A stretch of DNA of 64,000 bases from Candidatus Niyogibacteria bacterium (GCA_016181935.1 JACOYI010000003.1:35741-99740); one strand, 5' to 3'. Counted from the first letter of the stretch, positions 21,915 through 37,893 are shown. Numbers and translations: made by a program. The notes: generated from the sequence alone by a model not told the origin.

Positions 21915-21986
21915 TGGGTGTGCTAGGATTCGAACCTAGAACCACGAAGGTATAAGCTTCGCGCTCTACCATTGAGCTACACACCC
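21915..21986 (-). tRNA. tRNA-Ile(UAU), hand-folded with anticodon UAU
   Basis: Acceptor GGGTGTG/CACACCC, D-arm GCTC-AATGGTA-GAGC, anticodon stem CGAAG/CTTCG with loop CTTATAC, T-loop TTCGAAT, discriminator A. Confidence 0.7.
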
Positions 21987-22035
21987 ATTTGCCTTGCTCC
22001 TCGCTCACTGCCAGCGATAAGCTCCGTGCTCCCTA

Positions 22036-22083
22036 CCTGCCTGCCTGCCGGCAGGCAGGTACCGATTGAGCTACGGGTGCGTT
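22036..22083 (-). other. tRNA 5'-half-like fragment (GCACCCGTAGCTCAATCGGTA) followed by a perfect palindrome CCTGCCTGCC/GGCAGGCAGG, upstream of tRNA-Ile
   Basis: Matches the acceptor and D-arm 5' strand of the adjacent tRNA but lacks the D-stem 3' strand. A candidate TTGACA -35 lies at 22133 to 22138 on the minus strand. Confidence 0.5.
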
Positions 22084-22218
22084 GAAACCGCCCTTATTCT
22101 AGCACTGTGTGGATAACTTTTCTATCCTATTTTGTCAACCCCCCGTATAATGACCATGTTATTGCTTTTATCTTTTTAAAGGTCGAGTTTGTATTATTCA
22201 ATGAATTTATAAGCGAAT

Positions 22219-22812
22219 ATGCAACCTTCCTTTAATAAATGGCTCCCGATCGCGTTGATGATCGGCGTGCTCGCCGGATTTTCGGTATGGCTGACCGTTG
22301 GCTGGCTTTCGGTGAACATCGCGGGGTGGCTGGGCGCCGTATGGGCTTTGTTTATCAGCTGGGGATTGTATTTTGCCGGAGGCGCCAAACTGTCGCGTCT
22401 TCACAAATATTTCTTCGGGCTGACCGGCGGCATCGTTTTCGGCTGGCTCACGCTTCTTGTTTACGGCTGGATTTTGGCCTATGTGGGTGATCCATGGGCA
22501 TTGCCATTGACGGTGTTTCTTGCCGCCACATCGATCGTGCTTCTTGAGCTGACGGATTGGTTCGAATATGCCCCCGCGTATTTTCTGACCTATGCGGGAT
22601 ATTTCGCGTTTGTGTTCGGTAATTTCGCGCCGGGGGCGACCGTCGAGATGGCGGCGATCTATTTCTGGATCCTTATCATGATCGGCGTCGGGTTCGGCAT
22701 CGTTTCCGCCGTCGTCAAAGACAAAATGTTCGATTGGATGCGTGTTCCTAAAAGTCAGCGTCAAACGGTATTTGATCGCGAAAACCGCGGAATGTACGGC
22801 TTGATGCAGTGA
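22219..22812 (+). CDS. integral membrane protein, hypothetical (W/G/F-rich, ~6 TM)
   Basis: Hydrophobic helices throughout. The overlapping 462-aa minus ORF is antisense junk. Confidence 0.6.
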   Translation: MQPSFNKWLPIALMIGVLAGFSVWLTVGWLSVNIAGWLGAVWALFISWGLYFAGGAKLSRLHKYFFGLTGGIVFGWLTLLVYGWILAYVGDPWALPLTVFLAATSIVLLELTDWFEYAPAYFLTYAGYFAFVFGNFAPGATVEMAAIYFWILIMIGVGFGIVSAVVKDKMFDWMRVPKSQRQTVFDRENRGMYGLMQ

Positions 22813-22834
22813 TTTTTTTGACGTCAAAACCGCC

Positions 22835-22874
22835 CCAAAGGTAGTCCTGCGGGTCAGAAACGGACTACCCTTGG
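22835..22874. repeat. REP-like palindromic element, copy 2 (opposite loop orientation)
   Basis: CCAAAGGTAGTCC-TGCGGGTCAGAAAC-GGACTACCCTTGG. An outer stem AAAACCG/CGGTTTT and a following T-run make it terminator-like. Confidence 0.8.
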
Positions 22875-22974
22875 GACGGTTTTTGATTTGCCCATCCACA
22901 ACTGTTATGAAAAGGCGCGAAGGTTTATTATAGAGAAGGAACGGAATTTGAAAATTTTTGCATGGAGGCGTGTC

Positions 22975-24996
22975 ATGCCCGAAAACAACCGATTCGATGT
23001 TGACCGCGCGATCACGGATGACGCCGAACGAAAAAAGGAAAAAGGCGCCCAAAAGCAGGAAATTCTGTTCGCTGAATATCTGAAGCGCGTTCAAGAAGAT
23101 CCGAAGATCGCCCAGAACGCCCATGCGCGGGTTTTGGAAACGGTCTTGGGCTTCAGCGTGGAGGATATTCCGGAAGCGGAGCGATGGTTGGGCGTCGAGA
23201 AGCGCTATTCTTTGATCGCATCCAAACTTTTCGGCATTGAAAAGCCGACCGAAGAGATCATGCGATACCTGGAGGCGGGCGCCGAAGGGCTTCCGATCGG
23301 CAAGCAAATTCTTTTGATCGTGGGTCCGACCGCGAGCGGAAAATCCACGTTCGTGAATATTCTCAAGCACGCGCTCGAACACTATCACGAGCGCCCGGTC
23401 TTTATGATCAAAGGGTGTCCCCTGTACGAAGAACCGCTTCATTTGCTGCCTCGTCATCTTCGGGATGAATTTTTCGAGAAAACGAGCATCCGGATCCGCG
23501 GGGATCTCTGTCCGCATTGCCGATATCGACTGATGGAAGAATACAAAGGAGAATGGGCGCGCGTGCCCATCGAAACGTTCACATTCTCGATCCAAGGAAC
23601 GCGCGGTATCGGGTCATTTGAGCCATCGGATGAAAAATCGTCCGATGTTTCCGAGCTCGTGGGCCGTGAGAATATCGCCATCAGTTCAAGAAAGGGCACG
23701 GATCATCCGTTGGCATATTCGCTTTCCGGAGAGTTGGAAAAAGCGAATCGCGGCATTTTCGAGGGGCGGGAGCTTATCAAGGCCGACGAAAAGCTTTTGT
23801 GGGTGTTGATCAGCGCCGCCGAAGAAGGGGAGATCAAAGTTCAGGGCTCAACGCTTCCCCATATTTCTGTTGATGTTTTGATGATCGGTCATACGAATCT
23901 TACGGAATACCGGAAATTCGCGGCGCGTCAGGAAAATGAAGCGCTGCACGACCGGATGTATGTGGTCACATTCCCGTATCTGTTGCGGGTCAAGGACGAG
24001 GTGGCGCTGTATCGCAAGCTCATTCGAAGCGAAAACGATTTCTCGGATCTTCGTAAATGCCATGTGGCGCCGGGAACGCTCGAAATGGCGGCGATCTTTG
24101 CGGTACTTTCGCGGCTTCTGGATTCGCAAATGGGCGTGGATGCGTTGACCAAACTCAAGCTCTATAACGGCGACAAAGCGCTCACCGAGATTCAGAACAA
24201 AGAAAAAATGCCGGTGGATCTGCGCGCGCTCATCGAAGAAGGTCAGGCATCGTCGGATATTTCCAAGCGCGAAGGCATGTTCGGCATCAGCCCCCGGGAC
24301 GTATTGGCTGCGCTCAACACGTCGCTGGTCGCTCAAAAAGGGAAAAACGGATGCTTAACGCCGCTTCGGGCGATCCGCGCGATCCGCGAGATCTTTGAGC
24401 ACCGGATGGGATATACGCCCGAGGAGATCGAGCGGTTCCGAACGCTCTTGTCTGCAGGAGAGGGCGGCAGCGTGATGACCGAGTATCATGATTTTGCGGT
24501 TCGAACCGTAAGCCGAGCGTTTTTGCACGCGTACGACGATCTTAAGCGGGACCTGTTCGGAAGGTATATCAACGAGATCGAATTTTACCGCGAAACGAAA
24601 CGAAAATTCGTTCGCGGTCAGACCCATGATATTCGCAGAGACGAGCTGACCGGAAAACCCAAAGAACCGGACACGAAGTTGATGCGGTCCGTGGAAGAGC
24701 AAATCCCGATCGTCGAATCGGAGGCGGAAGCATTTCGGGGCGAGATCTTGGAATTCAAAGCGGGGACTCCGAATTTTTCTTACGATACCTATCCGCCGCT
24801 TGCCCAAGCCATTGATAAAAAATTATTGCACGACAGCCGGTCGGTTTTGACGCTTGTTTTGGATCCCAACCGTCCTCGCGGCGATGAAGAAAAAAAGCGG
24901 GTTGGAGATCTTTTTAACGCGCTAAAAATGCGTGAGCATTGCGAGGTTTGCGCTCGGGAATTGGTGGAAAAGGCCAGTGAATTTTTGAGGGAATAG
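22975..24996 (+). CDS. prkA: PrkA family serine protein kinase (AAA ATPase-like)
   Basis: GGAGG RBS 6 nt upstream. Walker A LLIVGPTASGKSTFV. Length and domain order match PrkA/YeaG. Confidence 0.85.
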   Translation: MPENNRFDVDRAITDDAERKKEKGAQKQEILFAEYLKRVQEDPKIAQNAHARVLETVLGFSVEDIPEAERWLGVEKRYSLIASKLFGIEKPTEEIMRYLEAGAEGLPIGKQILLIVGPTASGKSTFVNILKHALEHYHERPVFMIKGCPLYEEPLHLLPRHLRDEFFEKTSIRIRGDLCPHCRYRLMEEYKGEWARVPIETFTFSIQGTRGIGSFEPSDEKSSDVSELVGRENIAISSRKGTDHPLAYSLSGELEKANRGIFEGRELIKADEKLLWVLISAAEEGEIKVQGSTLPHISVDVLMIGHTNLTEYRKFAARQENEALHDRMYVVTFPYLLRVKDEVALYRKLIRSENDFSDLRKCHVAPGTLEMAAIFAVLSRLLDSQMGVDALTKLKLYNGDKALTEIQNKEKMPVDLRALIEEGQASSDISKREGMFGISPRDVLAALNTSLVAQKGKNGCLTPLRAIRAIREIFEHRMGYTPEEIERFRTLLSAGEGGSVMTEYHDFAVRTVSRAFLHAYDDLKRDLFGRYINEIEFYRETKRKFVRGQTHDIRRDELTGKPKEPDTKLMRSVEEQIPIVESEAEAFRGEILEFKAGTPNFSYDTYPPLAQAIDKKLLHDSRSVLTLVLDPNRPRGDEEKKRVGDLFNALKMREHCEVCARELVEKASEFLRE

Positions 24997-25083
24997 TGTT
25001 ATTGCCCAGCCCAGTAGGACTGGGCTTTTGTTTTCGCGGTATAATCAAGGCGAAGCGCATTTTGACAACACCTAGAGGTTCCG

Positions 25084-26394
25084 ATGCCGATCATCCGTTC
25101 CGATCCGGTCGCGCAGAAAGGAAAAAAGGACGCCGCGCGGCACCGCGAGAAACAAAAAGACGCCATTCGAAGACAATTGCCCGAGATCATTGCGAGGGAA
25201 TCCATTATCACGTCGAAAAAAGGAAAGATCGTGAAAGTTCCCATTCGTATCATGGATATTCCGCATTTTCGCCCCGCACAAGGTTCTGCGGGTGCGGGAG
25301 TCGGACAAGGGAAGGGAAAAGCCGGGGGTGTTATCGGTCGGCGTCCCGGAACCGGAAAACCGGGCGAGGCGGGAGACCGTCCGGGCGAGGAATATCTGGA
25401 AACAGAGATCGAAATGGAGGAATTGATCGAAATGATGATCGAAGACCTCGGCCTTCCGCGGCTGGAAGAGCGGAAGGGCGAAGGAATGGTCGCCGAAACC
25501 CGATTTAAGATCCGCGGCATTCAGAAAACAGGTCCGTGGGTGCTTTTGGATAAACGAAGGAGCGCCCGGGAGGGGTTGCGCCGGTTTTGGGAATTTTTGC
25601 ATTATCTTGTCAAGGAAACCGGCCGCGATGAGCTCGCCTGTTTTGATGCGCTCGAGCAGACGGATGGTATCCTTGCCGACGCGTTGGAATTGCTGAAAAG
25701 CGGCGCCTATGCGCCGATCCATACGGTTTTTGAGCCGTTTCCGATCTTCTATCCCGACGATCTCCGGTTTTTGGAACAGAAAAAGGACATAGAGTATCAT
25801 TCGCAAGCCGTGGTGTTCGCCCTGATGGATACGTCGGGCTCCATGACGGACAAAAAAAAATATCTTGCGCGCTCGGCGCTTTTTTGGCTCGCGGCATTTT
25901 TGCGAACGATCTACGAGCGGGTCGAGATCCGGTTCATCATTCACGATGCCCGAGCCGAGGTCGTAGAGGAGGAGGAATTTTTCAAGAAAGTACTGGGCGG
26001 CGGAACGCGCGCGTGGACCGCGTACGAACTTGCCGGAGGACTTATGGATTCCGAATATCCGGTATCGGAGTGGAATATCTATTTATGGCATTTTTCGGAC
26101 GGGGAAGATTTTGAACCCGCGCGCGCGGCTCTCGAAGCGAAGAAACTGATCGAACGCGGCATTTCCATGTTCGGGTATGGCGAGATCGAACCGAGCAGCA
26201 GCCATTCCGATTCGGCGCTGCTCGCGGCCTTCAAGGAAATACTGGATGTTCAGGTTCACTGGAAAGAGGGGTTCATGGTGGTCGCAGGGCGGGACATGCC
26301 ATTTCTTGCGGTCGCGATCCAGAAAAAGGAGCACGTTCATTTGGCGCTTCGCGAATTTCTGGACAAAGAGAGGTGGGGCCATGCAACGAAGTGA
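25084..26394 (+). CDS. yhbH: YhbH/YeaH family protein (DUF444, vWA-like)
   Basis: Start MPIIRSDP.... Glycine-rich segment GQGKGKAGG. Conserved position in the prkA-yhbH-spoVR triad. Confidence 0.8.
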   Translation: MPIIRSDPVAQKGKKDAARHREKQKDAIRRQLPEIIARESIITSKKGKIVKVPIRIMDIPHFRPAQGSAGAGVGQGKGKAGGVIGRRPGTGKPGEAGDRPGEEYLETEIEMEELIEMMIEDLGLPRLEERKGEGMVAETRFKIRGIQKTGPWVLLDKRRSAREGLRRFWEFLHYLVKETGRDELACFDALEQTDGILADALELLKSGAYAPIHTVFEPFPIFYPDDLRFLEQKKDIEYHSQAVVFALMDTSGSMTDKKKYLARSALFWLAAFLRTIYERVEIRFIIHDARAEVVEEEEFFKKVLGGGTRAWTAYELAGGLMDSEYPVSEWNIYLWHFSDGEDFEPARAALEAKKLIERGISMFGYGEIEPSSSHSDSALLAAFKEILDVQVHWKEGFMVVAGRDMPFLAVAIQKKEHVHLALREFLDKERWGHATK

Positions 26395-27919
26395 CGTAAA
26401 GCGATTGGAAACCGTTGAGCGCCGGAGCCGCGAGATCGCCGAAGAGTTCGGACTTTCCACGACCGATGTCATGTTCGAAATCGTGTCGAGCCAGCAGATG
26501 CTCGAAGGGATGGCGTATCGGTTTCCGACCAATTTTTCCCATTGGACGTTCGGACGGGATTACGAACGCCAGCGCACGATCTATGAACATACGGGCGGCG
26601 GCCTTCCCTACGAGGTCGTGTGGAATTTTGAGGTGCCACGGGCGTTTTTGATGGAATCGAATCCATTCGCATTGAATGCGCTCGTCATCGCGCATGTGTG
26701 GGGGCATGTGGATTTTTTTCTGGAGAGCCGGTATCTCCAGCGCGGCCGCGCTTTTTCCGACATTGCCGGAGAAGCGCGAAGCGCCGCCGAGCGGTTTCGC
26801 GGCTATGAAGAGCGGTATGGAAAAGAAAACATGGAAAAATTCATTGACGCGGCCATGTCCATTGAGTGGCATCAGCATCCGGATCCCTTTTTTGAGGAGC
26901 CGGATGAAGAAGAAATGCGTGAGCGGCTGATCCAGCGAGAACGCGCAATGCTCGAACGCACGCGCGATATTCATTCCCAGTTCAAAAAACCGGAAACGAA
27001 AGCCGAGATCCGTGAGATCGAAAAACGCCTGAAACGTCTGTCACGCAAAACTCCGCCTGGGCCGGTATACGACCTCTTGTGGTATATCACCCGGAAATCT
27101 CCTCTGCCGCTCGAACCGTGGCAGCAGGATGTGTTGTCGGTGGTCCGCAGTCAGGCGCGCGCACTTTCTCCCAACCGCAAGACCAAAATGCTGAACGAGG
27201 GATGGGCGACCTATTGGCATGTCCGGATCATGCGGCGGCTGTTCGAGGAAGGGATACTGGACGCAAAAGAGCACGGCATTTTTTCGGATTTCCATGCGAA
27301 GGTCACGCGTCCTCTGCGCCGCGATTTCAATTGGTACGCGATCGGGCCGGCGCTTTACGAATATGTACGCGAGCGGTGGGATCGCGGGCAATTCGGGCTC
27401 GAATTCGAGGAATGCGGCGATTCCGCAAAAAGAGCGTACTGGGATACGAAAGTAGGCAAGGGGCGGGAGAAAATATTCGAACTGCGGTCGTTTTACACCG
27501 ATCGCATGGCCATTGAGCATTTCTTTGATGCGGATTTCATCCGTCGCAACGATCTGTATCTTTATACGGAGACCGTGGATCCGCAAAATGGGGACATTGT
27601 GGATGTCATTGCGGAAAAGGATCCTGAAACGATCCGGCGCATGTTGAAACACGCCTTTGTTCATTACGGGACGCCCGTGATCCGCGTGGAGGACGGGAAT
27701 CATAATCAGCGCAGCGAACTCTATTTGGTGCATGAATTCGACGGATTCGAATTGGATCCGGCGTATCGCGACCGGACGCTCGAAAATATCCATGAACTTT
27801 GGGGACGCGCCGTGCATCTGGAAACGGTCATTCAGGGAAAGCGGACGCTTTGCACGTATAACGGAAGAAGCGTCTCGACGGATACGGGTTCTTCGGCCGA
27901 CGGATTGATGGAATTATGA
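26381..27919 (+). CDS. spoVR: SpoVR/YcgB family protein
   Basis: Start MQRSDVKRLE overlaps the yhbH end by 14 nt. SpoVR-like length. Followed by a terminator. Confidence 0.8.
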   Translation: MQRSDVKRLETVERRSREIAEEFGLSTTDVMFEIVSSQQMLEGMAYRFPTNFSHWTFGRDYERQRTIYEHTGGGLPYEVVWNFEVPRAFLMESNPFALNALVIAHVWGHVDFFLESRYLQRGRAFSDIAGEARSAAERFRGYEERYGKENMEKFIDAAMSIEWHQHPDPFFEEPDEEEMRERLIQRERAMLERTRDIHSQFKKPETKAEIREIEKRLKRLSRKTPPGPVYDLLWYITRKSPLPLEPWQQDVLSVVRSQARALSPNRKTKMLNEGWATYWHVRIMRRLFEEGILDAKEHGIFSDFHAKVTRPLRRDFNWYAIGPALYEYVRERWDRGQFGLEFEECGDSAKRAYWDTKVGKGREKIFELRSFYTDRMAIEHFFDADFIRRNDLYLYTETVDPQNGDIVDVIAEKDPETIRRMLKHAFVHYGTPVIRVEDGNHNQRSELYLVHEFDGFELDPAYRDRTLENIHELWGRAVHLETVIQGKRTLCTYNGRSVSTDTGSSADGLMEL

Positions 27920-27931
27920 CGTGAGTATCAA

Positions 27932-27961: not shown

Positions 27962-27987
27962 TTGACGCAGGCGCGTATAATGGTGGC

Positions 27988-29505: not shown

Positions 29506-29579
29506 CGCTACAACGTTTTTTGTTATACGTTAAAAGGAGAAATTGAAACGGTGAATTTCAGTATAAGGGAGGTTGACCG

Positions 29580-29837: not shown

Positions 29838-32045
29838 CTATTCAAAATGCAGATTTTCGAATCGCGCGGCGAATGATTTGAGGCGCGGGTGGCGCCCGAG
29901 TTCGGGGTCGCGTTCCAAAAGCGCCCGCGCTTCGGCGCGCGCCGCTTCCACCATTTTGATATTTTTGAGCGCTTCCATGCCTGCGTCCGAAATGCCCCAT
30001 TGCCCCGAGCCGGAAAGTTCGCCTGCGCCGCGGAATTTGAGATCATACTCGGCAAGTTCGAATCCGTTTTTGGCTTCCACCAACGCCTGCAGACGCGTGA
30101 GCGTACGCGCCGTCGTGGAATCGGTGAAAACAAAACAATAGGGCTGATGCGTGCCGCGCAACACGCGGCCGCGCAATTGATGCAGTTGCGCGAGCCCGAA
30201 CCGGTCCGCGCCCTCGATCAGGATGAGGGTGGCGTTCGGCACATTCACGCCGACCTCGATGACCGAGGTGGCGATCAACACATGGATTTTCCCCGCGCGA
30301 AAATCGCGCATGACGCGTTCTTTTTCTTTTGGCAGCATTTTACCGTGGAGCATTTCCACATTAAATTCCGGAAAAACATCGCGCGAAAGTTTTTTATGCT
30401 CGGCTTTCACGGATTTCATTTCGAGCACCATTTCCGAGTCCGACCCGTCTCGCCCGACGCGAGTCGAGGCGGAGTTTTCCTCGATTCGCGGGCAGATGAT
30501 GTAGGCCTGCCGGCCCTTTTTGATCTCCGAGCGCATCTGTTCGTAGGCGCGGGCGCGTAGTGCGGGCGGTACGACGGTCGTGATGATCTTCTTGCGTCCC
30601 GCGGGCATTTCGTCAATGAGGGTGAGTTCGAGGTCGCCGTAGAGGGTGAGCGCGAGGGTACGCGGAATGGGGGTTGCGGTCATGCTCAAAAGATGAGGGA
30701 TGCCGAGCGCGGTTGCCGAAGCAAGGTGGGTCCGCCTCGGCGAGCCCTCGGCGAGACGGGCCCGCTGGGCGACGCCGAAGCGGTGCTGTTCATCAATGAC
30801 GGCAAGCGCGAGTTTCCTGAATTTCATCGAATCCTGTATCAACGCATGGGTGCCGATGATGATGGGAATTTCTCCGGAAGCCGCCCATTTCAAAAATTGC
30901 GCGCGGCTCGTGTGCGTATCCTTTGTGGGAAATGCCTTGGACGGGAAGCGACGGCATTCCGACGAGGTGATGAGCCCGACGGGGATACGGTACGGGGCGA
31001 AATGCGCGCAAAAGTCCTGATAGTGCTGGCGCGCGAGGATCTCGGTGGGCGCCATGTAGGCGATCTGGTGGCCGCTCTTGGCGCACGCATAAGCGGCGAT
31101 CGCGGCGACAATGGTTTTGCCCGAGCCGACATCGCCCTCGAGCAGGCGCGCCATGGGCAGGGGACGCGAAATATCCGTAAGAACCGCTTTGATCGCGGCT
31201 TTTTGGGCGTTGGTCAATGCGAAAGGGAGAGACGAAAGAAAGGGTTTGAACGCATCGGGCGCGATGCGGACCGGAGTGGCATGCGACCGGCTTCGCGCCA
31301 TTTTTATTTTCTGGCGGTCGAGCTGGATCAAAAAAATTTCCTCGAACGCGAAGCGTTTGCGCGCCGCAAGAGCGATCCGCGCGTCGGGCGCTTTGTGGAT
31401 GGCGTGGAGCGCGGTCTTTAAGCTCGGCAATTTGTAGCGCGCGAGGATGTCATGCGGGATAGGGTCATCGAATGCGCCTGCCTCGCCGGCAGGCAGGCCC
31501 GAAAATTTTTCCAAAAGTTTTCCGGCGGCATACGCGAGCCATTCGGAGGTCACGCCGCGCGATTCGGGATAGACCGGTGTGAGTGTTTTTTGTTCGGTCT
31601 CTTCCACGAATGAACCCGGTGCGCGATATTTAGGATTCGCAAGAAAAAGTCCGCGCTTTCCTTCGCCCACGCGCCCCGCAAACGAGTATTCAATTTCTGG
31701 CTTCAGGGTTTTGGCAATGTAGGGCTGGTTGAACCAGATGGCGCGGATTTTTCCGGTGCCATCATCAATGACGGTTTCGGCGAGTGCGATTTTGGTGCGG
31801 AATGTTTTTGTAATTTTCGCCGATACGACATGCCCCGTAATGACGGCGCGGTCGCCCGCGGCGAGGTCGCGGATGGCTTTGGGTTCGTGGAACGATTCGT
31901 AGCGCGCGGGAAAACGCCAGAGAATGTCGCGCGCGGTTTTGAGCCCTGCGTTCAGGAGCCGCTCCTTTTGCTTGGGCGTCAGGCGCAGATGGAGTTCCAG
32001 CGGGTCGTCGAGATGCATAGGATTAACGGTATCGCGTTCGCTCAA
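29838..32045 (-). CDS. recG: ATP-dependent DNA helicase RecG
   Basis: Wedge domain, helicase motifs (GDVGSGKT, DEQHRFG, SATP), and C-terminal helicase domain. Confidence 0.9.
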   Translation of the reverse strand: MSERDTVNPMHLDDPLELHLRLTPKQKERLLNAGLKTARDILWRFPARYESFHEPKAIRDLAAGDRAVITGHVVSAKITKTFRTKIALAETVIDDGTGKIRAIWFNQPYIAKTLKPEIEYSFAGRVGEGKRGLFLANPKYRAPGSFVEETEQKTLTPVYPESRGVTSEWLAYAAGKLLEKFSGLPAGEAGAFDDPIPHDILARYKLPSLKTALHAIHKAPDARIALAARKRFAFEEIFLIQLDRQKIKMARSRSHATPVRIAPDAFKPFLSSLPFALTNAQKAAIKAVLTDISRPLPMARLLEGDVGSGKTIVAAIAAYACAKSGHQIAYMAPTEILARQHYQDFCAHFAPYRIPVGLITSSECRRFPSKAFPTKDTHTSRAQFLKWAASGEIPIIIGTHALIQDSMKFRKLALAVIDEQHRFGVAQRARLAEGSPRRTHLASATALGIPHLLSMTATPIPRTLALTLYGDLELTLIDEMPAGRKKIITTVVPPALRARAYEQMRSEIKKGRQAYIICPRIEENSASTRVGRDGSDSEMVLEMKSVKAEHKKLSRDVFPEFNVEMLHGKMLPKEKERVMRDFRAGKIHVLIATSVIEVGVNVPNATLILIEGADRFGLAQLHQLRGRVLRGTHQPYCFVFTDSTTARTLTRLQALVEAKNGFELAEYDLKFRGAGELSGSGQWGISDAGMEALKNIKMVEAARAEARALLERDPELGRHPRLKSFAARFENLHFE

Positions 32046-32090
32046 TAAAAAAAGCCCCGCGCGTGTCGTGCGACACGGCGGGGCGTCGGT

Positions 32091-32489
32091 CTAGCGGGTC
32101 CATTCCTCGGGGAGGGGTTGGTCGAGCCTGAATACCAGCCCTTGGCGGGTCCTGGAATTGAAGACGACTTCCCACTGCCATTGGGTGAGAGCGGAAGCTG
32201 GGTAATCAAAGAGCGGTTCACTGGTCAGGAATCGGCCCAGGAATCGGATATTGCTTGGCTCGTCTTCTTGATGTCCCATCGCGACGGTCGTTCCTCGGAG
32301 CGCGACCTCGAAGGAAATTTTAAACTCGTTCCAGCGCCCGAGCCGCTGTTGGAATTCGCGTGTGGGAGCGAGCGTGAATTCCACGATGACTTTCTTGTGT
32401 TCTCGGTATGACCGGAGTTCCTCCTCGATAATGCGAGACAAGCCCGGAGCATTGGTGACACAGGAATAGGGCAGGCGTTCGGATGCCAT
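32091..32489 (-). CDS. hypothetical protein (~132 aa)
   Basis: Start MASERLPY is preceded by AAAAGGAG. The ORF-track N-terminal extension was judged spurious. Confidence 0.45.
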   Translation of the reverse strand: MASERLPYSCVTNAPGLSRIIEEELRSYREHKKVIVEFTLAPTREFQQRLGRWNEFKISFEVALRGTTVAMGHQEDEPSNIRFLGRFLTSEPLFDYPASALTQWQWEVVFNSRTRQGLVFRLDQPLPEEWTR

Positions 32490-32645
32490 AACGGCTCCTT
32501 TTAATGTGCGGGTGCCTCTCGAGGCCGAGGCACGGCAAGCCCTTACAAAAGGCATAACGCCTTTTGCGACCCGTTCGTGAATGGAATGAACAGGAATTGA
32601 ACTATAAGTATTATATACTATCTAGTGTAAAAAGTCAAGTTTTTG

Positions 32646-32717
32646 TGCCCCCATGAGGAATCGAACCTCAATTTCAGCCTCCGCAGGGCTGCGCTCTATC
32701 CGTTGAGCTATGGGGAC
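32646..32717 (-). tRNA. tRNA-Arg(GCG), hand-folded
   Basis: Acceptor GTCCCCA/TGGGGGC with one G-U pair, D-arm GCTC-AACGGATA-GAGC, anticodon stem CAGCC/GGCTG with loop CTGCGGA, T-loop TTCGATT. Confidence 0.65.
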
Positions 32718-32735
32718 AATAATAATGAAGAGCGG

Positions 32736-32768
32736 GACGGTCCTATCCGTTGAACGACGAGGGCAACA
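32736..32768 (-). other. degenerate tRNA 5'-half-like fragment upstream of tRNA-Arg
   Basis: GCCCTCGTCGTTCAACGGATAGGACCG resembles the acceptor and D-arm of the adjacent tRNA. Confidence 0.4.
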
Positions 32769-32784
32769 GGAATTCCGAAATCCA

Positions 32785-32910
32785 TTTTAGAAGCCCCACA
32801 GGCGTTTTGCACGGCGTTTTTTGGTTATAATTTCTGTGGAACCAAAAAACAAAGTGCCGAGGACGGAGCTTGAATCTCGCCGGAAATTCAAGCGTATTCT
32901 AAAAGGGATT
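32785..32910 (+). repeat. ~135-nt structured repeat element, copy A (terminal stem plus two internal hairpins)
   Basis: P1 TAGAAG/CTTCTA, P2 TTTTTTGG/CCAAAAAA, P3 GCTTGAAT/ATTCAAGC. Conserved linkers are CCCCRCAGGCG and CAAAGYGCCGAGGACGGAGC. Homologous to copy B at 63558 to 63695. Confidence 0.7.
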
Positions 32911-32924
32911 TCGGGATTCGTGTT

Positions 32925-33524
32925 CTAGAAGCCGAGATATCGCCCGATGCCTTCGGCGAGCGATTCCTCGGTTTCCGTTTCTTTCAAGGTTTTTATCAAA
33001 ATGTTCCGTATCTCGATCGGATCGGCGTCGCCTAAGGGAATCGTAATGCGGGGCGAGGTCAATTTCTTGGAAATGATATCGAGCTCTTTGGTATGCGGCG
33101 GGTCGTAGCGGATCCAAAAGGATTCGAGCGATTCGTAGGAATGCAATTTTTCTCCGATCTGAACGCCGCGCGCCGTCACCGCGAATTTCACGATCTTGGG
33201 ACGCCGCGCTCCGTAAAGCGCGATCGTGAAGCCAGCCAAGACCGTTAAAATACCAAATAAAAGGTTTCGAATCAAGGCGGCGACAATAACAAGCGCCGCA
33301 ACGATGATGCCGACGGCCCAGTACCATTCGCGGGATTTGGGAACGAAATCGTATTCGGGCGCCGACCAGCTGACGAGCGGCGTTTTAATGTCCGGTTTCG
33401 GTTCGGGCGTTGCGGCGATTGGCGGCAGTCCGCCAGCTGGCGGAGGCTGCGGTTCCGGCAGTTTTTCTGCGGGCGCTTGTTGTCCGGCATCCGGTTCTTT
33501 GCGGCGGACCATATCCATATCCAT
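32925..33524 (-). CDS. membrane protein with Pro-rich N-terminal region, hypothetical
   Basis: Start MDMDMVRRKE lies just after a terminator. TM helix VGIIVAALVIVAALI. The ORF-track N-terminus was judged spurious. Confidence 0.5.
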   Translation of the reverse strand: MDMDMVRRKEPDAGQQAPAEKLPEPQPPPAGGLPPIAATPEPKPDIKTPLVSWSAPEYDFVPKSREWYWAVGIIVAALVIVAALIRNLLFGILTVLAGFTIALYGARRPKIVKFAVTARGVQIGEKLHSYESLESFWIRYDPPHTKELDIISKKLTSPRITIPLGDADPIEIRNILIKTLKETETEESLAEGIGRYLGF

Positions 33525-33550
33525 TTCTTTATTGTCGCGGTTTCGCCTCA

Positions 33551-33584
33551 AAATGAAAAGCCGTCCTGCTTTGAGTAGGACGGC
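33551..33584 (-). terminator. rho-independent terminator GCCGTCCT/AGGACGGC plus U-run (minus strand)
   Basis: Perfect 8-bp stem followed on the minus strand by TTTTCATTTT, after the stop of the 33602 to 33802 ORF. Confidence 0.65.
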
Positions 33585-33601
33585 CTCGCTATTTTGAACC
33601 T

Positions 33602-33802
33602 TTATTTTTTGAAACGCTCCGGCAGAATTCTGCCGAAAATTTTTTTGATTTTCATCCGGAGCCAGCGCGCATAGACGAAGTAGCCGGCAAGGATGGCAAT
33701 GCCCCACACGAGGAACGGAATGCCGGGCACCAGTGGCAGGATAAGTCCCGCAATCCCCAAAAGAACAAGAACTCCGCCGAGCGCGATCCAGAAGAGCCTC
33801 AT
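33602..33802 (-). CDS. small membrane protein (66 aa), hypothetical
   Basis: Two TM helices, GGAG RBS, terminator downstream. Confidence 0.5.
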   Translation of the reverse strand: MRLFWIALGGVLVLLGIAGLILPLVPGIPFLVWGIAILAGYFVYARWLRMKIKKIFGRILPERFKK

Positions 33803-33833
33803 CGGAAATCTCCGTATCTGCGGCGCGGCATCG

Positions 33834-34009
33834 CTAGATGCCGAAATATTTCATCAGCGCTCCGACGCCGGCAATGGCGAGACCGCCGGCGATTTTGATT
33901 ATCGGCTTTTTCCAATCCCTGTCGTCTTCGCTGTCGCCGAAAGTCATGACATCAAAAGCGCCGAAGAGAACGGCTATGCCGCCAATGAACATCACGAGAT
34001 GTCCCATTT
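33834..34009 (-). CDS. small membrane protein (58 aa), below the ORF-track length cutoff
   Basis: MGHLVMFIGGIAVLFGAF...GGLAIAGVGALMKYFGI. GGAGGG RBS 7 nt upstream of the ATG. Confidence 0.45.
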
Positions 34010-34136
34010 TTCAACCCTCCGTGTTTGGGATGTATGGTCTAGATATTCAATAGCATTTCCATAAATCTTGTCAACCCCGCAGTAGAAAGCGGCGTAGCGC
34101 GCGCATGCCGGACGTCGCTTTTCACTACGGGGTCAA

Positions 34137-34170
34137 CATAAAAACTCCGCCAAGGGCGGAGCCATTTTTC
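34137..34170. terminator. bidirectional terminator CTCCGCC-AAG-GGCGGAG flanked by A and T runs
   Basis: Perfect 7-bp stem with CCATTTTT on the plus strand and TTTTTATG on the minus strand. Confidence 0.6.
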
Positions 34171-34309
34171 AACTGGCGGTGTATTTTAAAAATAGCTCGA
34201 ACGGAATTCGCTCCTCGCCGCGCACACTGATAATTTCAAGTTTTTCTTTGGCGGAATAAATTCAGAATTCGCGAAGCGAATACCAAATGTATTTTATGAA
34301 AAATTTCAA

Positions 34310-34360
34310 AATAAATCAAAAAGAAGAAACCTGCCAGAGCTCCGGGAGGAGATGGCAGGT
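34310..34360 (-). terminator. rho-independent terminator ACCTGCCA/TGGCAGGT plus U-run (minus strand)
   Basis: Directly 3' of the 34365 to 35030 ORF stop. The minus strand then reads TTCTTCTTTTTGATTTATTTTG. Confidence 0.65.
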
Positions 34361-34364
34361 CAGT

Positions 34365-35030
34365 TTAGTTGAACGACACCAGAGGATTGAGAGTGAAGTA
34401 CTCCTCGCGCCCGTGGACGCCAGACGACACGATCCGCAAGAACTGCCGATTGAAGTCTTGCTGCACCGGCAAGCTCTCGTGAGGAGTCAGGATGCCGATC
34501 TCGTGGACTTCGCCGGCTTTCAGGAAGCTCGCGCGATCGAATGGATAGTCCGCCGCAGCGTGGCCGATGTCGCCGTCGAGCGACGTGTCCTCGTGTTCGG
34601 CGTCCCACACAGCGCAACTGTCGTCGAGGTTGTTGGCGAGCAGGATCCTGACATCACGGTCGAGGGTGACGCGGTGTCTTGGCTTCGGCTTCGGTTTTGG
34701 GCGTGGGCCTAGGCTAGGACGTGGTACGCCCCATCCTCCTCCACCTCCCCAACAGTAGATTTGACCCGGAACTCTTCCCACTTCTGTGTGCAATGCGCGG
34801 CCATATTTTGCCCGCTGTCCGCGGTGAGGAGTCCCTGCGACGGCGACAGATTCATCGATCGTCAGGAAGCCAATGTCGCCTTTTTTCAGAAACACCAAAT
34901 CCACGATGTCCCTGTAAGGCGCATAGATGTCGGGAATCGACGCCGAATCGCCTTGGATGTAAGGCATCATCAGGCACCGAATACCCGAGAATTGAGGGAA
35001 CTCCACTGTCCGTCCTGTGTGTGTGTTCAT
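34365..35030 (-). CDS. hypothetical two-domain protein with GGGGGWG...PKPKPKP linker
   Basis: AAAGGAGG RBS. Own promoter with an operator palindrome upstream and its own terminator. Confidence 0.55.
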   Translation of the reverse strand: MNTHTGRTVEFPQFSGIRCLMMPYIQGDSASIPDIYAPYRDIVDLVFLKKGDIGFLTIDESVAVAGTPHRGQRAKYGRALHTEVGRVPGQIYCWGGGGGWGVPRPSLGPRPKPKPKPRHRVTLDRDVRILLANNLDDSCAVWDAEHEDTSLDGDIGHAAADYPFDRASFLKAGEVHEIGILTPHESLPVQQDFNRQFLRIVSSGVHGREEYFTLNPLVSFN

Positions 35031-35089
35031 TGTCCAACCCTCCTTTCAAGGTACGATTACTATCTCAGCACATTGCCAAGGTTTAGCTC

Positions 35090-35142
35090 CATTTTACTAG
35101 ATTATGCATAAAAGTCAATAGTCGGCAAACTTGCCGACTATT
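35090..35142 (-). promoter_or_regulatory. promoter TTGACT-N17-TAAAAT overlapped by a perfect 26-bp palindrome AATAGTCGGCAA-AC-TTGCCGACTATT (candidate operator)
   Basis: The palindrome lies at 35117 to 35142, the -35 at 35113 to 35118 and the -10 at 35090 to 35095, all on the minus strand upstream of the 34365 ORF. Confidence 0.55.
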
Positions 35143-35306
35143 GAGAAAAATCTTATGAAAAAATTTCTTTTGCCCTTACAAAATATGGTTCGAGTCGATT
35201 TGTTTTCAGGTTCTTTGGCAGTTTGGAGTGTGCGCGGCGGAGCCGCTCATTTTTGCCCCGCCACACCCGAGCCGCGCTTTGCGCGGCGAGGAGCGAATTC
35301 CTTTCT

Positions 35307-35375
35307 GGCGGAGGCGGTAGGATTCGAACCTACGAAGCCCTTGCGGACTTAGCAGTTTTCAAGACTGCCCCCATT
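35307..35375 (-). pseudogene. tRNA-Ser(UGA) 3' two-thirds copy (anticodon arm to 3' end, ~85% identical) lacking the 5' acceptor strand
   Basis: GCAGTCTTGAAAACTGC...GTAGGTTCGAATCCTACCGCCTCCGCCA has no upstream GGAGGCG partner. Confidence 0.7.
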
Positions 35376-35382
35376 CTTTCGC

Positions 35383-35418
35383 TTTTACGCGAAAGCCGGG
35401 GTTGCTTTTTATTTTATC
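35383..35418. repeat. left copy of a 38-nt inverted repeat (AATAAAAAGCAACCCCGGCTTTCGCGTARAAGCGAAAG)
   Basis: Its reverse complement recurs at 45505 to 45542 with one mismatch. It contains the internal hairpin CTTTCGC/GCGAAAG. Confidence 0.8.
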
Positions 35419-35425
35419 GACGCGG

Positions 35426-35512
35426 CGGAGGCGGTAGGATTCGAACCTACGAGGCCATTGCTGACCTAACGGTTTTCAAGACCGTCCCATTCAACCGCTC
35501 TGGCACGCCTCC
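35426..35512 (-). tRNA. tRNA-Ser(UGA)
   Basis: Acceptor GGAGGCG/CGCCTCC, anticodon stem ACGGT/ACCGT with loop CTTGAAA, long variable arm, T-loop TTCGAAT, discriminator G. Confidence 0.85.
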
Positions 35513-35543
35513 GCCTCGCCGACAAATCAATGTAAAGCAACCC

Positions 35544-35589
35544 GTCGAATCTGAAGCAGTTCAGATTCGACCCACTCTGGCACGCCTCC
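35544..35589 (-). other. tRNA-Ser 5' fragment (GGAGGCGTGCCAGAGTGGG) fused to a perfect 12-bp hairpin GTCGAATCTGAA/TTCAGATTCGAC
   Basis: Seen on the minus strand upstream of the complete tRNA-Ser(UGA). Confidence 0.5.
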
Positions 35590-35592
35590 GTA

Positions 35593-35838
35593 TCATTTGA
35601 TCAGATTTTCGAGATTAGGCAGGGCTTTGAGGCCGCTCCCGTAAATCGTGTAGAGCGTACCAAGATACGGCTGGATTTGCAAATAACCAAAAACGGTAAG
35701 GCCGATGATGGCGGTCCATTTGACGGCGACGACGACCCGCTGCCAGACAAACACGCGGTGCATTTTTTGCACGAGCTCGAGCGTTTTGCGGGTCGCTTCG
35801 AGGTTTTTTTCAAGAAGAAGTTTGAGCTCGGGGTCCAT
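35593..35838 (-). CDS. small membrane protein (81 aa), hypothetical
   Basis: One TM segment WTAIIGLTVFGYLQI. GC content similar to the core genome. Confidence 0.4.
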   Translation of the reverse strand: MDPELKLLLEKNLEATRKTLELVQKMHRVFVWQRVVVAVKWTAIIGLTVFGYLQIQPYLGTLYTIYGSGLKALPNLENLIK

Positions 35839-35890
35839 GGATCCAGTATAATTGAAAAACCGGCAAAAATAGAGTACAATAAAGCGGGCT

Positions 35891-35935
35891 TGGAGAGGTG
35901 GCTGAGTGGGTTTAATGTGCTCATAAGCACATTAA
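35891..35935 (+). other. tRNA-Ser 5' fragment (GGAGAGGTGGCTGAGTGGG) followed by the perfect palindrome TTTAATGTGCT-CAT-AAGCACATTAAA
   Basis: Canonical tRNA-Ser 5' end without the remainder of the tRNA. Confidence 0.5.
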
Positions 35936-35964
35936 ACGGGCGCTCAAAGCATTGAACCCATAGC

Positions 35965-36051
35965 GGAGGCGTGGCTGAGCGGTTGAAAGCGGCGCCGTGC
36001 TAAGGCGTTAAGGGGGAAACTCCTTCAGAGGTTCGAATCCTCTCGCCTCCG
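35965..36051 (+). tRNA. tRNA-Ser(GCU)
   Basis: Acceptor GGAGGCG/CGCCTCC, anticodon stem GCGCC/GGCGT (one G-U pair) with loop GTGCTAA, long variable arm, T-loop TTCGAAT. Flanked by the processing-stem-like inverted repeat CCCATAGC/GCTATGGG. Confidence 0.85.
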
Positions 36052-37893
36052 CTATGGGTTTTTAATACGCGCCCTGGGTTTTCGCCAAGATGCCGCCGAT
36101 GCTCGCAATGCGAGCTTTGGCGGGACAAGCCGTGCTAAGGCGTTAAGGGGGAAACTCCAGAGGTTCGAATCCTCTCGCCTCCGCAATCTTGGAATGTCTG
36201 CCTCGAAAGGCAGGCATTTCCGTTTATTCACGCGATATTTTTTAGGTTCGATTGCTATTGTGGTTGAAGGAAAACGATTTGCGATCATCGAATAAAAATC
36301 GAGCGGTTTTTTCAAGGAAATACTCAACTTTTCGTCTTTTAGGGTTAGGTTCGATTCAGAAAGCGACATAAAGACCGCCCGCTTCTGTTCCGGCGCGCCA
36401 TTTTCAAACCACATCCGTGCTGCAACGGCAAAATTGAAGGAGTTCTCCGCCCAATCGATCCATTCCTCAATCTTGCGACCGGTGTCTTGTTGGGCTTCTT
36501 CGAGTTGCTTCTTTTGAGCCAAAAGGGTTTTGCGTTGCGGCTCGTATTCCTCGAGCGTTAGGAGTTCGCCGCTGGCGTTTTTCGGCGATGTATAGAGTTG
36601 CGTCAAATTCTGTAATTCGGCAACAACGTCTTTATAGCGCTTCTGTTGGGAGTCGATGACCGCGTTTTGGTTTTTAACGGTCTCAACATTGTCTTTCGAT
36701 AGTTCCTCAAGCGCCCACTGGCTGAACTCTTGGGAAAGTTTGAATCCTTTGATCTCATTGTCAATGAGTTTCTCCAAAACTTCGGCGCGCATGAATTTCT
36801 GGGTGCACTTCTTATTCTTCTGCTTGGTGCAATGGTAATAAACGTAGTGGAGGATTGTCGGCTTTTTCATTTCTTCAATCCTCGTTTTGCATTGGGGACA
36901 AGCATCTTTGCTCTTGTAAGCAAATTTATATTTACACTTCGTGCAAATGAGTTGATGTTTTTCTTCTGCGGTTACCATCCCGCCGCACTCGCCGCATTCA
37001 ATCTTCCCCGTGTAGGAAAAATGGTGGTTGGTGTGCGATCTTGGCTTTCCTTTCCTGCCGAGCTTCACTTGGATACGGTCAAAGTCATCCTCGGTAATCA
37101 TGGGTGTATGCGCGCCTTTGACGAGATCGCGCTCACCTGTTTCTTCGTTCTTTACTCCAAAGTAGCCGTAGTAAAACGGCTCGGTGAGAATTTTATAAAT
37201 TGCGGAGATGGGAAGATGCCGACCGCCCTGCCGTTTTGTTTGCCGTGTTTTTAAACCCCATTTTACTATTTCTTTTTGAATCCTGCGTACTGAATATTCT
37301 TCGCTCAAGAAAAGTTGGAAGAGACGCTGCACGAGAGGGAAACGTTCGGGGTCAGAGATAATATTTCGTTCACCCTTTGGTTTATCAAGATTGTTGAGAT
37401 ATCCGATGGGTGCGATGCCGTTCCTCCATCCCTGAAGGACTTTTGTCCGGTGTCCACGTTTTACGCTTGCGATCATGTCATCGGAATACTTTTTTGCCAT
37501 GCCGAATTCTATTTGCAGGATGAACTTATCATCAGACGAATTGTAATAAGTTTTGAAAGGCGTGCGCACTTCATCAATGTGTCCTTCGTCCATCAAGGTG
37601 ATTACCCAGCCACCGTCTAAGGCGTTGCGGGCAATGCGGTTCGGCTGCCAGACAAGGAAGGCATTTATTTTGCCCTCCTCCATCATGCTCATGAGTTGAG
37701 CAAACACCGGCCTTCCCCGTTTGTGGGCGGATTTTTCCTCTCGGTAAGTGCCGAGGACTCTGAGGTTGTGTTTCTTTGCGTACTCCTTTAGTTCGCGCTC
37801 CTGCGAATCAATCGAAAGCACCTGCTTATCCTTGTCCTCGGTGGACTTCCGGCAGTAGATGACGTATTTAAGTTTCTCGTTTTGGGTTGTCAT
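36052..37893 (-). CDS. large serine recombinase (phage integrase/transposase type)
   Basis: N-terminal resolvase catalytic domain YCRKSTEDKDKQVLSIDSQ, recombinase domain, Cys4 zinc ribbon (CGECGG...CTKC...CPQC) and coiled coil. The C-terminal ~45 codons read through the tRNA-Ser fragment, so the exact stop is uncertain. Confidence 0.85.
   Translation of the reverse strand: MTTQNEKLKYVIYCRKSTEDKDKQVLSIDSQERELKEYAKKHNLRVLGTYREEKSAHKRGRPVFAQLMSMMEEGKINAFLVWQPNRIARNALDGGWVITLMDEGHIDEVRTPFKTYYNSSDDKFILQIEFGMAKKYSDDMIASVKRGHRTKVLQGWRNGIAPIGYLNNLDKPKGERNIISDPERFPLVQRLFQLFLSEEYSVRRIQKEIVKWGLKTRQTKRQGGRHLPISAIYKILTEPFYYGYFGVKNEETGERDLVKGAHTPMITEDDFDRIQVKLGRKGKPRSHTNHHFSYTGKIECGECGGMVTAEEKHQLICTKCKYKFAYKSKDACPQCKTRIEEMKKPTILHYVYYHCTKQKNKKCTQKFMRAEVLEKLIDNEIKGFKLSQEFSQWALEELSKDNVETVKNQNAVIDSQQKRYKDVVAELQNLTQLYTSPKNASGELLTLEEYEPQRKTLLAQKKQLEEAQQDTGRKIEEWIDWAENSFNFAVAARMWFENGAPEQKRAVFMSLSESNLTLKDEKLSISLKKPLDFYSMIANRFPSTTIAIEPKKYRVNKRKCLPFEADIPRLRRREDSNLWSFPLNALARLVPPKLALRASAASWRKPRARIKNP
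36130..36184 (+). pseudogene. tRNA-Ser(GCU) 3' partial copy (anticodon loop to 3' end, near-identical apart from a 3-nt deletion)
   Basis: CCGTGCTAAGGCGTTAAGGGGGAAACTCC-AGAGGTTCGAATCCTCTCGCCTCCGC lies about 78 bp downstream of the complete tRNA and inside the 3' end of the recombinase ORF. Confidence 0.75.

Follow-up and report, generated by a model that had tools for sequence, protein, structure and literature searches.

Why do four of the five transfer RNA (tRNA) genes in a 64,000-nucleotide (nt) stretch of a Candidatus Niyogibacteria genome lie beside broken copies of themselves? The stretch, called the window below (GCA_016181935.1, JACOYI010000003.1:35741-99740), belongs to a metagenome-assembled genome of the candidate phyla radiation (CPR, or Patescibacteria). 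ARAGORN and Rfam call the same five tRNAs in it, Leu-CAA, Ile-TAT, Arg-GCG, Ser-TGA and Ser-GCT, and so confirm the intact genes that an earlier reading of the sequence alone (the sequence-only reading) had folded by hand. That reading had noticed a degenerate partial copy near every tRNA except Leu-CAA and had taken the copies for scars of elements that target tRNA genes. We compared the window with related loci, all of them from metagenome-assembled genomes or metagenome contigs and cited here by number (L001 and so on). The closest genome available, GCA_016177385, is called the sister (loci L001 and L086); its RecG is 80% identical to that of the window by tblastn and its CYTH protein 63%. 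We propose, with a probability of roughly 0.6, that the fragments are relics of serial replacement of tRNA genes by selfish elements. The window genome, like its relatives, seemingly has a single gene for each tRNA and each of these genes is therefore presumably essential.

The partial copies were confirmed by aligning each tRNA with its own 250-nt flanks (Smith-Waterman) and comparing the scores with those of 2000 random segments of the window. For Ile(UAU), Arg(GCG), Ser(UGA) and Ser(GCU), partial copies were located within about 20–135 nt of the gene. The downstream copies of Ser-TGA and Ser-GCT scored 93 and 103, respectively, where the highest null score was 26. A score of 33 was obtained for the 5' piece upstream of Ser-TGA, and one of 23 for each of the two Ile pieces, 5' upstream and 3' downstream (21843-21861); 0 of the 2000 null segments scored as high. 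The upstream pieces of Arg (32740-32764; score 22, p = 0.017) and Ser-GCT (score 21, p = 0.029) are marginal alone. No significant partial copy was found in the 250-nt flanks of tRNA-Leu(CAA) (p = 0.59 upstream and 0.94 downstream), the exception that had been named at the outset. Elsewhere in the window each tRNA reaches scores of 21–23 about 5–10 times, so that the short pieces call for independent support, which the comparison with other genomes gives. The long copies lie far beyond the null and hold up as tRNA-like under a proper alignment model. The covariance models of Rfam recognize only these long 3' copies, the one of Ser-TGA by matching the tRNA-like part of the transfer-messenger RNA (tmRNA) model (E = 5e-5), and the short 5' pieces are too short for such a test. 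At gathering and at permissive thresholds, Rfam returned tRNAs and long 3' copies only, with no family for the hairpins or spacers described below and no match to intron models. A search of the whole window, including the far end of the island described below, detected no further tRNA fragments above noise.

The pieces have a fixed polarity. Both in the window and in 80 related loci, upstream matches begin at tRNA position 0 and downstream matches finish at the tRNA 3' end. At all four window genes a 5' piece lies upstream of the complete gene and a 3' piece, where present, lies downstream. In a survey of the flanks of 119 tRNAs from 80 Parcubacteria RecG loci, scores of at least 24 were obtained for 13% upstream and 17% downstream, compared with 0.25% of null segments. 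The spacers between gene and fragment are 8–76 nt at the four window loci and 3–50 nt in dozens of unrelated contigs.

At tRNA-Ile(UAU), the working gene stands between two pieces of another tRNA-Ile (Table 1). The upstream piece had been described as resembling a 5' half with a palindrome nearby; it is in fact a complete 5' half, with the palindrome inserted in its D-loop. Once the palindrome is excised, this half equals the working tRNA of the sister at all aligned positions other than acceptor positions 3–6 (GAGCACGGAGCTTAT is identical), and the working tRNA-Ile of the window differs from that of the sister at 9 of 73 positions. The sister (L086) lacks a 97-nt block of the window that comprises the old 5' half and the leader; there the tRNA itself stands at the corresponding distance from the promoter that both genomes share. 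The cross-genome comparison that had been suggested as a check thus yielded a presence/absence difference for an insert, at the Ile locus only. The old 5' half begins about 15 nt past the -10 hexamer. The motif TGGCAG(T/C)GAG on the 3' side of this half recurs in L003 and L042; its interpretation as a sigma-70 or a sigma-54 site was weighed by eye and is unsupported. Downstream of the working gene lies a 3' relic that the earlier inventory had missed. It reads GGTTCG, CCCCGTCATCCGACGGGGCGCCCTATCGAATGATAGGG, then CGAATCC and the acceptor strand, which amounts to a T-loop whose central CG holds a 38-nt double hairpin, and CGAATCCAAGCGCACGCAC is the remainder of the T-loop with the acceptor 3' strand of the old tRNA-Ile. 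The relic is identical to the 3' end of the sister tRNA at 19 of 19 positions versus 16 of 19 for the window's own gene; it folds into two hairpins (z = -3.8), and the whole unit, hairpins included, is about 96% conserved in the sister. We propose that this hit in the T-loop was an earlier event than the break in the anticodon loop.

The Arg locus shows the same order. The 5' fragment that had been reported upstream of tRNA-Arg(GCG) aligns with an orthologous fragment in the sister (L001), and it is identical to the working tRNA-Arg of L007 at 24 of 25 positions versus 18 of 25 for its inner neighbour. A faint T-arm relic, also missing from the earlier inventory, sits downstream where L001 retains an intact old T-arm and acceptor strand. 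In L001 the outer pieces have mutually complementary acceptor strands (GCGCCCA/TGGGCGC) and a complementary anticodon stem (TCCCG/CGGGA), both unlike those of the inner gene, and about 100 nt with the working tRNA-Arg take the place of the anticodon loop of the old gene.

The two Ser loci bear out what had been reported for them, namely a 3' copy downstream of each gene, near-identical at Ser(GCU), and a 5' fragment upstream, with a 12-bp hairpin at Ser(UGA) and a palindrome at Ser(GCU). When the outer pieces of Ser(UGA) (positions 0–24 and 20–89) are joined at their common GAAT, ARAGORN calls a tRNA-Ser(tga), and the outer Ile pieces of L003 behave likewise. The sequence past the Ser(UGA) 3' piece (CCAGAAAGGAATTCGC..) is orthologous to that past the working gene in L091, so that the 3' piece retains the ancestral downstream flank. 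The stem of the inner Ser(UGA) trailer folds no better than shuffled sequence (z = -1.0). At Ser(GCU) the acceptor stem of the working gene continues into leader and trailer, which makes a perfect inverted repeat of 17 nt (35955-35971 / 36044-36060). Such leader-trailer pairing is not a general feature, being strong only here and at a few Ile genes elsewhere. Flanks similar to the Ser(GCU) leader and trailer (ATTGAAAAT..GT before the tRNA and AC..ATTTGCAAT after it) surround tRNA-Ile(UAU) in L074, L049, L043 and L003.

The outer pieces thus read as one older resident gene that was split by an insert carrying another allele of the whole tRNA. They match the working tRNAs of relatives (Ile, Arg) and an ancestral flank (Ser-UGA), which identifies them as the older resident allele, and the old Ile and Ser(GCU) 5' pieces lie at a normal distance from promoter-like sites, which supports the nesting. 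We envisage that DNA elements that target tRNA genes repeatedly break the resident gene in a loop. The break points would be the D-loop at both Ser genes and the anticodon loop at Ile and Arg, with the T-loop hit in the earlier Ile event. Only insertions that bring a complete or 3'-partial replacement tRNA would survive. The outcome would be the nested order of old promoter, old 5' piece, short leader, new working tRNA, short trailer and old 3' piece. Small palindromic repeats would settle afterwards in the loops of the dead pieces, the double hairpin being specific for the CG of TTCGAA in the T-loop.

Several observations weigh against serial replacement. The acceptor strand of the old Ile 5' half (GCACCCG) cannot pair with that of the old 3' relic (CGCACGC), and the Ser-GCU 5' piece (GGAGAGG) cannot pair with the perfectly conserved 3' copy (CGCCTCC). 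The two Ile pieces probably came from separate events, and separate events likely account for the mismatch at Ser-GCU as well. Two relatives, L090 and L002, have the "new" Arg allele and no fragments, so that the direction of replacement has to be read from the nesting by itself. Between window and sister, two pieces, the 5' one of Arg and the 3' relic of Ile, have diverged less than the intergenic DNA around them; this conservation hints at a present function and fits pure junk poorly. The four inserts of the window (about 110–215 nt) contain no nuclease or recombinase gene detectable by tblastn. An empty site for the island beside Ser(GCU) was not found among the relatives fetched, which are non-syntenic at the Ser loci. 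Moreover, the proposal gives no account of how a cassette as small as the window inserts would move.

Since the window inserts carry no driver gene, we infer the driver, a free-standing GIY-YIG homing-endonuclease cassette, from the architecture that they share with loci of other genomes. An open reading frame (ORF) with a GIY-YIG domain (Pfam E 1e-12 to 1e-17) lies exactly between a tRNA and a displaced piece at nine related loci, eight of them distinct (L137 duplicates L106). In L092, L018 and L122 the GIY-YIG gene is upstream of the new tRNA and the old 5' piece is left; in L106/L137, L141, L130, L097 and L040 it is downstream of the tRNA and is followed by the old T-arm-to-3'-end, usually with the double hairpin. 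These ORFs encode about 80–90 amino acids (aa) without a recognisable DNA-binding domain. If the cassette origin holds, the nuclease genes would have since been lost from the window inserts. In L080 a GIY-YIG ORF follows the tmRNA gene at a distance of about 146 nt (the pair occupies 20142-20327 and 20473-20871). The tmRNA gene, too, has a tRNA-like T-arm at its end, and tmRNA may also be a target of the same elements.

Two phage systems and one class of intron invite comparison. In tRNA-dependent lysogeny of actinobacteriophages, integration breaks an essential host tRNA and the phage's own tRNA of the same isotype takes over (Guerrero-Bustamante & Hatfull 2024, PMC10865867). As there, the resident tRNA gene here is split and not rebuilt, as the rejoined Ser-UGA pieces and the complementary outer stems of L001 indicate, and the inner tRNA is complete, of the same isotype and of another allele than the outer pieces. 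In that system, however, a prophage with a tyrosine integrase lies between the halves, whereas here the insert is about 110–215 nt without a gene, the host is a CPR bacterium, and the breaks fall in D-, anticodon and T-loops. SegB, a free-standing GIY-YIG homing endonuclease from the tRNA cluster of T4-like phages, cuts the allele that lacks the nuclease and is copied together with flanking tRNA sequence; its cuts leave 2-nt 3' overhangs (PMC2330249). The related loci resemble this system in their small GIY-YIG genes beside tRNA genes, and the 2-nt CG on each side of the double hairpin may be compared with the 2-nt overhangs. Seg homing, however, is not described as leaving nested partial tRNA duplicates, and the CPR GIY-YIG ORFs are predicted, only about 80–90 aa long and absent from the window. 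Group I introns invade the tRNA genes of Patescibacteria (PMC13011429), so that selfish elements in tRNA loops are known from the same phylum; those introns splice out and leave one gene, whereas here the gene is replaced, the old pieces remain and no intron model matches.

The hairpins beside the fragments, which the sequence-only reading had listed together with the partial copies, are indeed present but are small repeats separate from the tRNA homology. The double hairpin of the Ile 3' relic, to judge from its distribution, is a mobile, lineage-specific repeat associated with tRNAs. It reads as two inverted copies of one 18-nt unit, CCC(CG/TA)TCGAATGA(CG/TA)GGG, and its loops imitate the T-loop (TCGAAT). 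A metagenome scan detected it in 58 stretches, representing 45 distinct sites, in both orientations and without coding capacity; variation is almost confined to the loops, and the invariance of the stems is partly imposed because the 21-base search pattern fixed most stem bases. The flanks read ..TTCG on one side and CGAA.. on the other at 45 of 45 sites. Nearly all rebuild a T-loop-like site with CG on both sides, and one is instead the TTCG of the anticodon loop of a tRNA-Arg(UCG). An intact tRNA lies at most 400 nt away at 33 of the 45 sites, with about 15 isotypes represented, and the rebuilt flank usually matches that tRNA from T-arm to 3' end. We considered the double hairpin as an intron-like insert in complete tRNAs and rejected this, since removal in silico gave a tRNA across the junction at 0 of 45 sites; the element therefore lives only in incomplete copies. 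GIY-YIG ORFs adjoin it at about 7 of the 45 sites. No transposase partner was identified and no match was found in viral contigs. The earlier suggestion of a lineage-specific tRNA-associated repeat is thus partly right, as it holds for this element.

Many copies of the double hairpin (L093–L150) lie within about 100 nt of a contig end, and repeats of tRNA fragments probably break short-read assemblies of CPR genomes. In L018 (about 12530–12570) a second double hairpin (TCCGCCAGAGGCGGA + CCAGCCTTTGGCTGG) occupies the D-loop of a dead tRNA-Ile copy, and its first hairpin also occurs beside the T-loop element in L107 and L145. A further insert of about 100 nt with the motif GGGGTCGCGAG...GTGACC is found in L042 (about 7660–7790), L075 and L070, either in the T-loop of displaced tRNA-Ser 3' fragments or beside dead 5' fragments. 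It has no Rfam match and does not occur in the window.

The 20-mer of the Ile palindrome also recurs. In L049 it sits within the D-loop of another dead 5' half of tRNA-Ile; in L080 two tRNA-Ser genes flank it, and in L092 it separates a tRNA-Ser from its displaced 3' end. L096 contains a fifth copy, which has no tRNA near, so that three of the four other loci are tRNA-fragment settings. In the hairpins after both Ser 5' pieces, one arm is the old D-loop and the other its exact complement; none of the fetched loci contains another copy of these sequences. Each of the four hairpins in dead pieces folds far more stably than shuffled sequence (z -3.8 to -6.5). REPINs, reportedly described by Bertels and Rainey in 2011, and the palindromic elements of Rickettsia are small palindromic repeats of the repetitive extragenic palindromic (REP)/REPIN type or the miniature inverted-repeat transposable element (MITE) type. 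The double hairpin is like them in being a non-coding hairpin doublet with a fixed target and dozens of near-identical sites, but differs in that its target is the T-loop of tRNA fragments, which its loops mimic, and in that no RAYT or IS200-type gene was seen nearby.

The 3' copy of tRNA-Ser(GCU) abuts an island of low GC content with a large serine recombinase, which we infer to be a live element that docked later on the 3' end of the displaced copy. Homologues of the recombinase in three other contigs (70–77% identity) terminate within or next to the 3' end of an oppositely oriented tRNA, Ser-CGA or Trp-CCA. Alignment of the junctions of these homologues and the window gives a conserved terminal hairpin and the junction ...ATTCCnAGnTTG/CGG. 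The recombinase gene stands at the end of the element and the tRNA sequence provides its stop codon; in the window the ORF is about 40 codons longer than the homologues and runs through the Ser(GCU) tRNA copy. No long direct repeats surround the homologous elements. No relatives of the recombinase were found in viral contigs and, as none of the double hairpin was found there either, a phage origin is unsupported. The Resolvase/Recombinase/zinc-ribbon architecture, the position of the gene at the element end by the attachment site and the lack of long direct repeats are those of large serine recombinase elements. Exact docking at tRNA 3' ends is a typical habit of tyrosine integrases and is not known to be one of serine recombinases. 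Unlike usual serine recombinases, this family docks at Ser-CGA, Trp-CCA and the Ser-GCU copy, with the tRNA providing the stop codon.

A possible degenerate tRNA-Ser end at about 45470–45492, near the right end of the island, is unproven. The adjoining region (45500-45538) contains, by eye, a long imperfect hairpin with a T-run and is possibly the displaced original terminator of tRNA-Ser(GCU); a terminator scan did not flag it. A similarity between the far ends of L081 and of the window was dropped as the orientations disagree. The sister contig stops just short of the expected tRNA-Ser loci, and a search for these loci of the sister, or for an island-free site, through homologues of a 221-aa protein (p221) returned only non-syntenic contigs. 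In another Niyogibacteria genome (L091, 1260-2950), a unit of about 1.7 kb lies directly 3' of tRNA-Ser(UGA); its only content is an ORF for a large serine recombinase, which gene calling had passed over, and 57-bp inverted repeats form its ends.

How do other explanations fare against these data? In the view closest to the sequence-only reading, islands with a tyrosine integrase would have entered the 3' half of the tRNA genes, supplied a new 3' end and later been almost wholly deleted, leaving the displaced 3' piece a few dozen nt away. This draws on a well documented source of tRNA fragments (PMC9897764, PMC4383910), and parts of it stand: the pieces are footprints of mobile DNA, and a live island does sit at the Ser-GCU copy. 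That copy, which runs from the anticodon stem to the 3' end, is the usual identity block for integration in the anticodon loop and has the typical extent of the displaced 3' fragments of Islander-type elements (PMC4383910; survey PMC9897764). Direct repeats of the 3' part of a tRNA mark insertion in those elements and are found here at Ser-GCU, Ser-UGA and Ile (21843-21861), and at other loci 3' halves of tRNA-Ile begin exactly at the anticodon and stand in tandem. Integration of this kind, however, yields only 3' fragments, since the 5' part stays in the rebuilt gene, yet a 5' piece lies upstream at four of four genes. The DNA from each tRNA to its fragment contains neither a tyrosine integrase nor any other ORF; the repeats enclose no island, and the sole recombinase is of the serine type and lies outside the repeat pair. 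The spacers are too uniform for random collapse, and the outer 5' and 3' pieces fit as one gene. The fragments are therefore not classic attL/attR integrase scars, ancient collapsed integrations leave the 5' pieces unexplained, and nothing indicates the repeated excision that had been suggested. We consider this explanation unlikely.

It is decidedly unlikely, in our estimate, that the pieces are there because they now act as RNA or DNA signals (in leader or trailer processing, as stabilising structures, as terminators, as decoys for tRNA-binding enzymes or nucleases, or as palindromes that bind a protein) and are kept by selection, a reading that does not exclude serial replacement. It would account for the conservation of the Arg 5' piece and the Ile 3' relic above that of neighbouring intergenic DNA, and differences between window and sister within the hairpins do fall in the loops. 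The strong folding of all four dead-piece hairpins is also consistent with it. The hairpin after the Ser-UGA 5' piece is terminator-like and comes directly after an 81-aa ORF, for which an exact database look-up gave no match, and the CCTGCC..GGCAGG palindrome recurs upstream of tRNA genes. Yet the Ile 5' half is absent from the sister and the Arg pieces from L090 and L002, and the length, break point and spacing of the pieces vary among loci. In addition, a double hairpin that is near-invariant at 45 sites of unrelated context is better explained as a recently mobile repeat than by a function specific to one locus.

That each tRNA gene was duplicated locally in tandem and its extra copies then decayed at random is most improbable. 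Such a history would explain the near identity of the Ser-GCU gene with the 3' copy 135 nt away from it, and tandem 3' halves do exist in L003, L049 and L051. Decay at random, however, would not spare an upstream 5' end and a downstream 3' end every time; the outer pieces are other alleles, which share their substitutions with the genes of other genomes rather than with the inner gene, and the spacers between copies are not duplicated. Chance similarity or mis-assembly of strain variants is scarcely credible: three short pieces do score only 21–23, all sequences are metagenomic and the L003 scaffold has a gap within its repeat array, but the long copies are far past any null, the short pieces are consistent in position and strand and have conserved counterparts at the orthologous sites of a genome that was assembled independently, and the same layout recurs across many projects and assemblers.

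Serial replacement, if it applies beyond the window, may have a wider counterpart, which we offer tentatively as a possibility that we doubt more than we believe. CPR bacteria might host an undescribed set of selfish elements for single-copy tRNA genes, namely tiny GIY-YIG cassettes with a replacement tRNA and the T-loop double hairpin, and the window would record four such events and a live island. One allele after another, often from a different lineage, would then overwrite their tRNA genes, and a double hairpin in the T-loop of a displaced copy might destroy the leftover target of the nuclease. In the searchable literature, whose coverage is incomplete, we found no description of this architecture or of a T-loop-specific double hairpin. 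If the proposal is true, tRNA genes in minimal genomes are contested and repeatedly overwritten loci, and such replacement would be a route for the horizontal exchange of tRNA alleles. It would also explain one kind of false or partial tRNA call, and one kind of contig break, in metagenome assemblies of CPR bacteria. The 80–90-aa tRNA-linked GIY-YIG nuclease, the T-loop-specific mini-repeat and the serine recombinase family that docks at tRNA 3' ends are candidate tools. Given how unusually well some relics are conserved, one may ask whether dead tRNA pieces are used in the processing of precursor tRNAs.

Table 1 Features of the window at and around its five tRNA genes, in order of position
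Feature	Position	Strand	Support or remark
tRNA-Leu(CAA)	9321-9404	-	ARAGORN, Rfam; only a weak 12/16 match at 9420-9435
Old tRNA-Ile 3' relic	21843-21905	-	GGTTCG 21900-21905, double hairpin 21862-21899, CGAATCCAAGCGCACGCAC 21843-21861
Working tRNA-Ile(UAU), inner newer copy	21914-21986	-	ARAGORN, Rfam 75.8 bits
30-nt leader that came with the inner tRNA-Ile (CGCTGGCAGTGAGCG...)	21987-22016	-	Sister without leader
Old tRNA-Ile 5' half, positions 1-36	22017-22080	-	Ends at anticodon ..GCTTAT; palindrome interrupts D-loop
Palindrome CCTGCCTGCCGGCAGGCAGG(CAGG), small repeat	22036-22059	.	DNA fold z = -4.4
Promoter-like site (TG-TAGAAT) of old tRNA-Ile	22096-22124	-	Conserved in sister
Faint old tRNA-Arg T-arm relic (ATAGTTCAATTCCTG)	32591-32605	-	Score 17, not significant alone
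Working tRNA-Arg(GCG), inner copy	32645-32717	-	ARAGORN, Rfam
Old tRNA-Arg 5' fragment (GCCCTCGTCGTTCAACGGATAGGAC-CGTCCCGCTC)	32730-32764	-	Acceptor, D-arm, start of anticodon stem
Old tRNA-Ser(UGA) 3' part, positions 20-89	35307-35376	-	About 87% identical to inner gene
Trailer of inner tRNA-Ser(UGA)	35376-35414	-	97% identical inverted 39-nt copy at 45500-45538, just right of island
Working tRNA-Ser(UGA), inner copy	35424-35512	-	ARAGORN, Rfam
12-bp perfect hairpin (GTCGAAT...ATTCGAC)	35544-35571	-	5' arm starts in old D-loop; z = -5.2; flagged terminator-like
Old tRNA-Ser(UGA) 5' fragment, positions 1-24	35565-35589	-	18/19 direct repeat; directly past stop codon of 81-aa ORF
Old tRNA-Ser(GCU) 5' fragment	35892-35916	+	About 12 nt past promoter-like site 35852-35880, promoter match 10/12
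Perfect hairpin (GTTTAATGTGC..GCACATTAAAC)	35910-35937	+	Begins in old Ser(GCU) D-loop; z = -6.5
Working tRNA-Ser(GCU)	35965-36052	+	ARAGORN, Rfam
Large serine recombinase	36052-37893	-	Pfam Resolvase, Recombinase, zinc-ribbon; ORF continues through tRNA copy
tRNA-Ser(GCU) 3' copy, positions 29-88	36129-36184	+	Identical except for a 3-nt deletion; recombinase island docks here
Low-GC island, about 9.3 kb	36185-45480	.	GC 39-47%; right end approximate
HTH_36 protein	within island 36185-45480		Pfam
MvaI/BcnI-type restriction nuclease	40555-41256		Pfam
LexA DNA-binding domain and S24 peptidase fused to N4/N6 DNA methylase, one ORF	41249-43141		Pfam

Two anticodons of the window, that of tRNA-Ile(UAU) and that of tRNA-Arg(GCG), are odd for bacteria, yet they are the norm at these syntenic sites in Parcubacteria (L001–L080). 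The CCA end is encoded by none of the tRNA genes inspected. The 221-aa protein has more than 1000 homologues at E ≤ 1e-5 in the protein database and no assigned function; its gene (34365-35030) is conserved and is bracketed in the window by a 26-nt inverted repeat of 96% identity (34199-34224 / 35280-35305).

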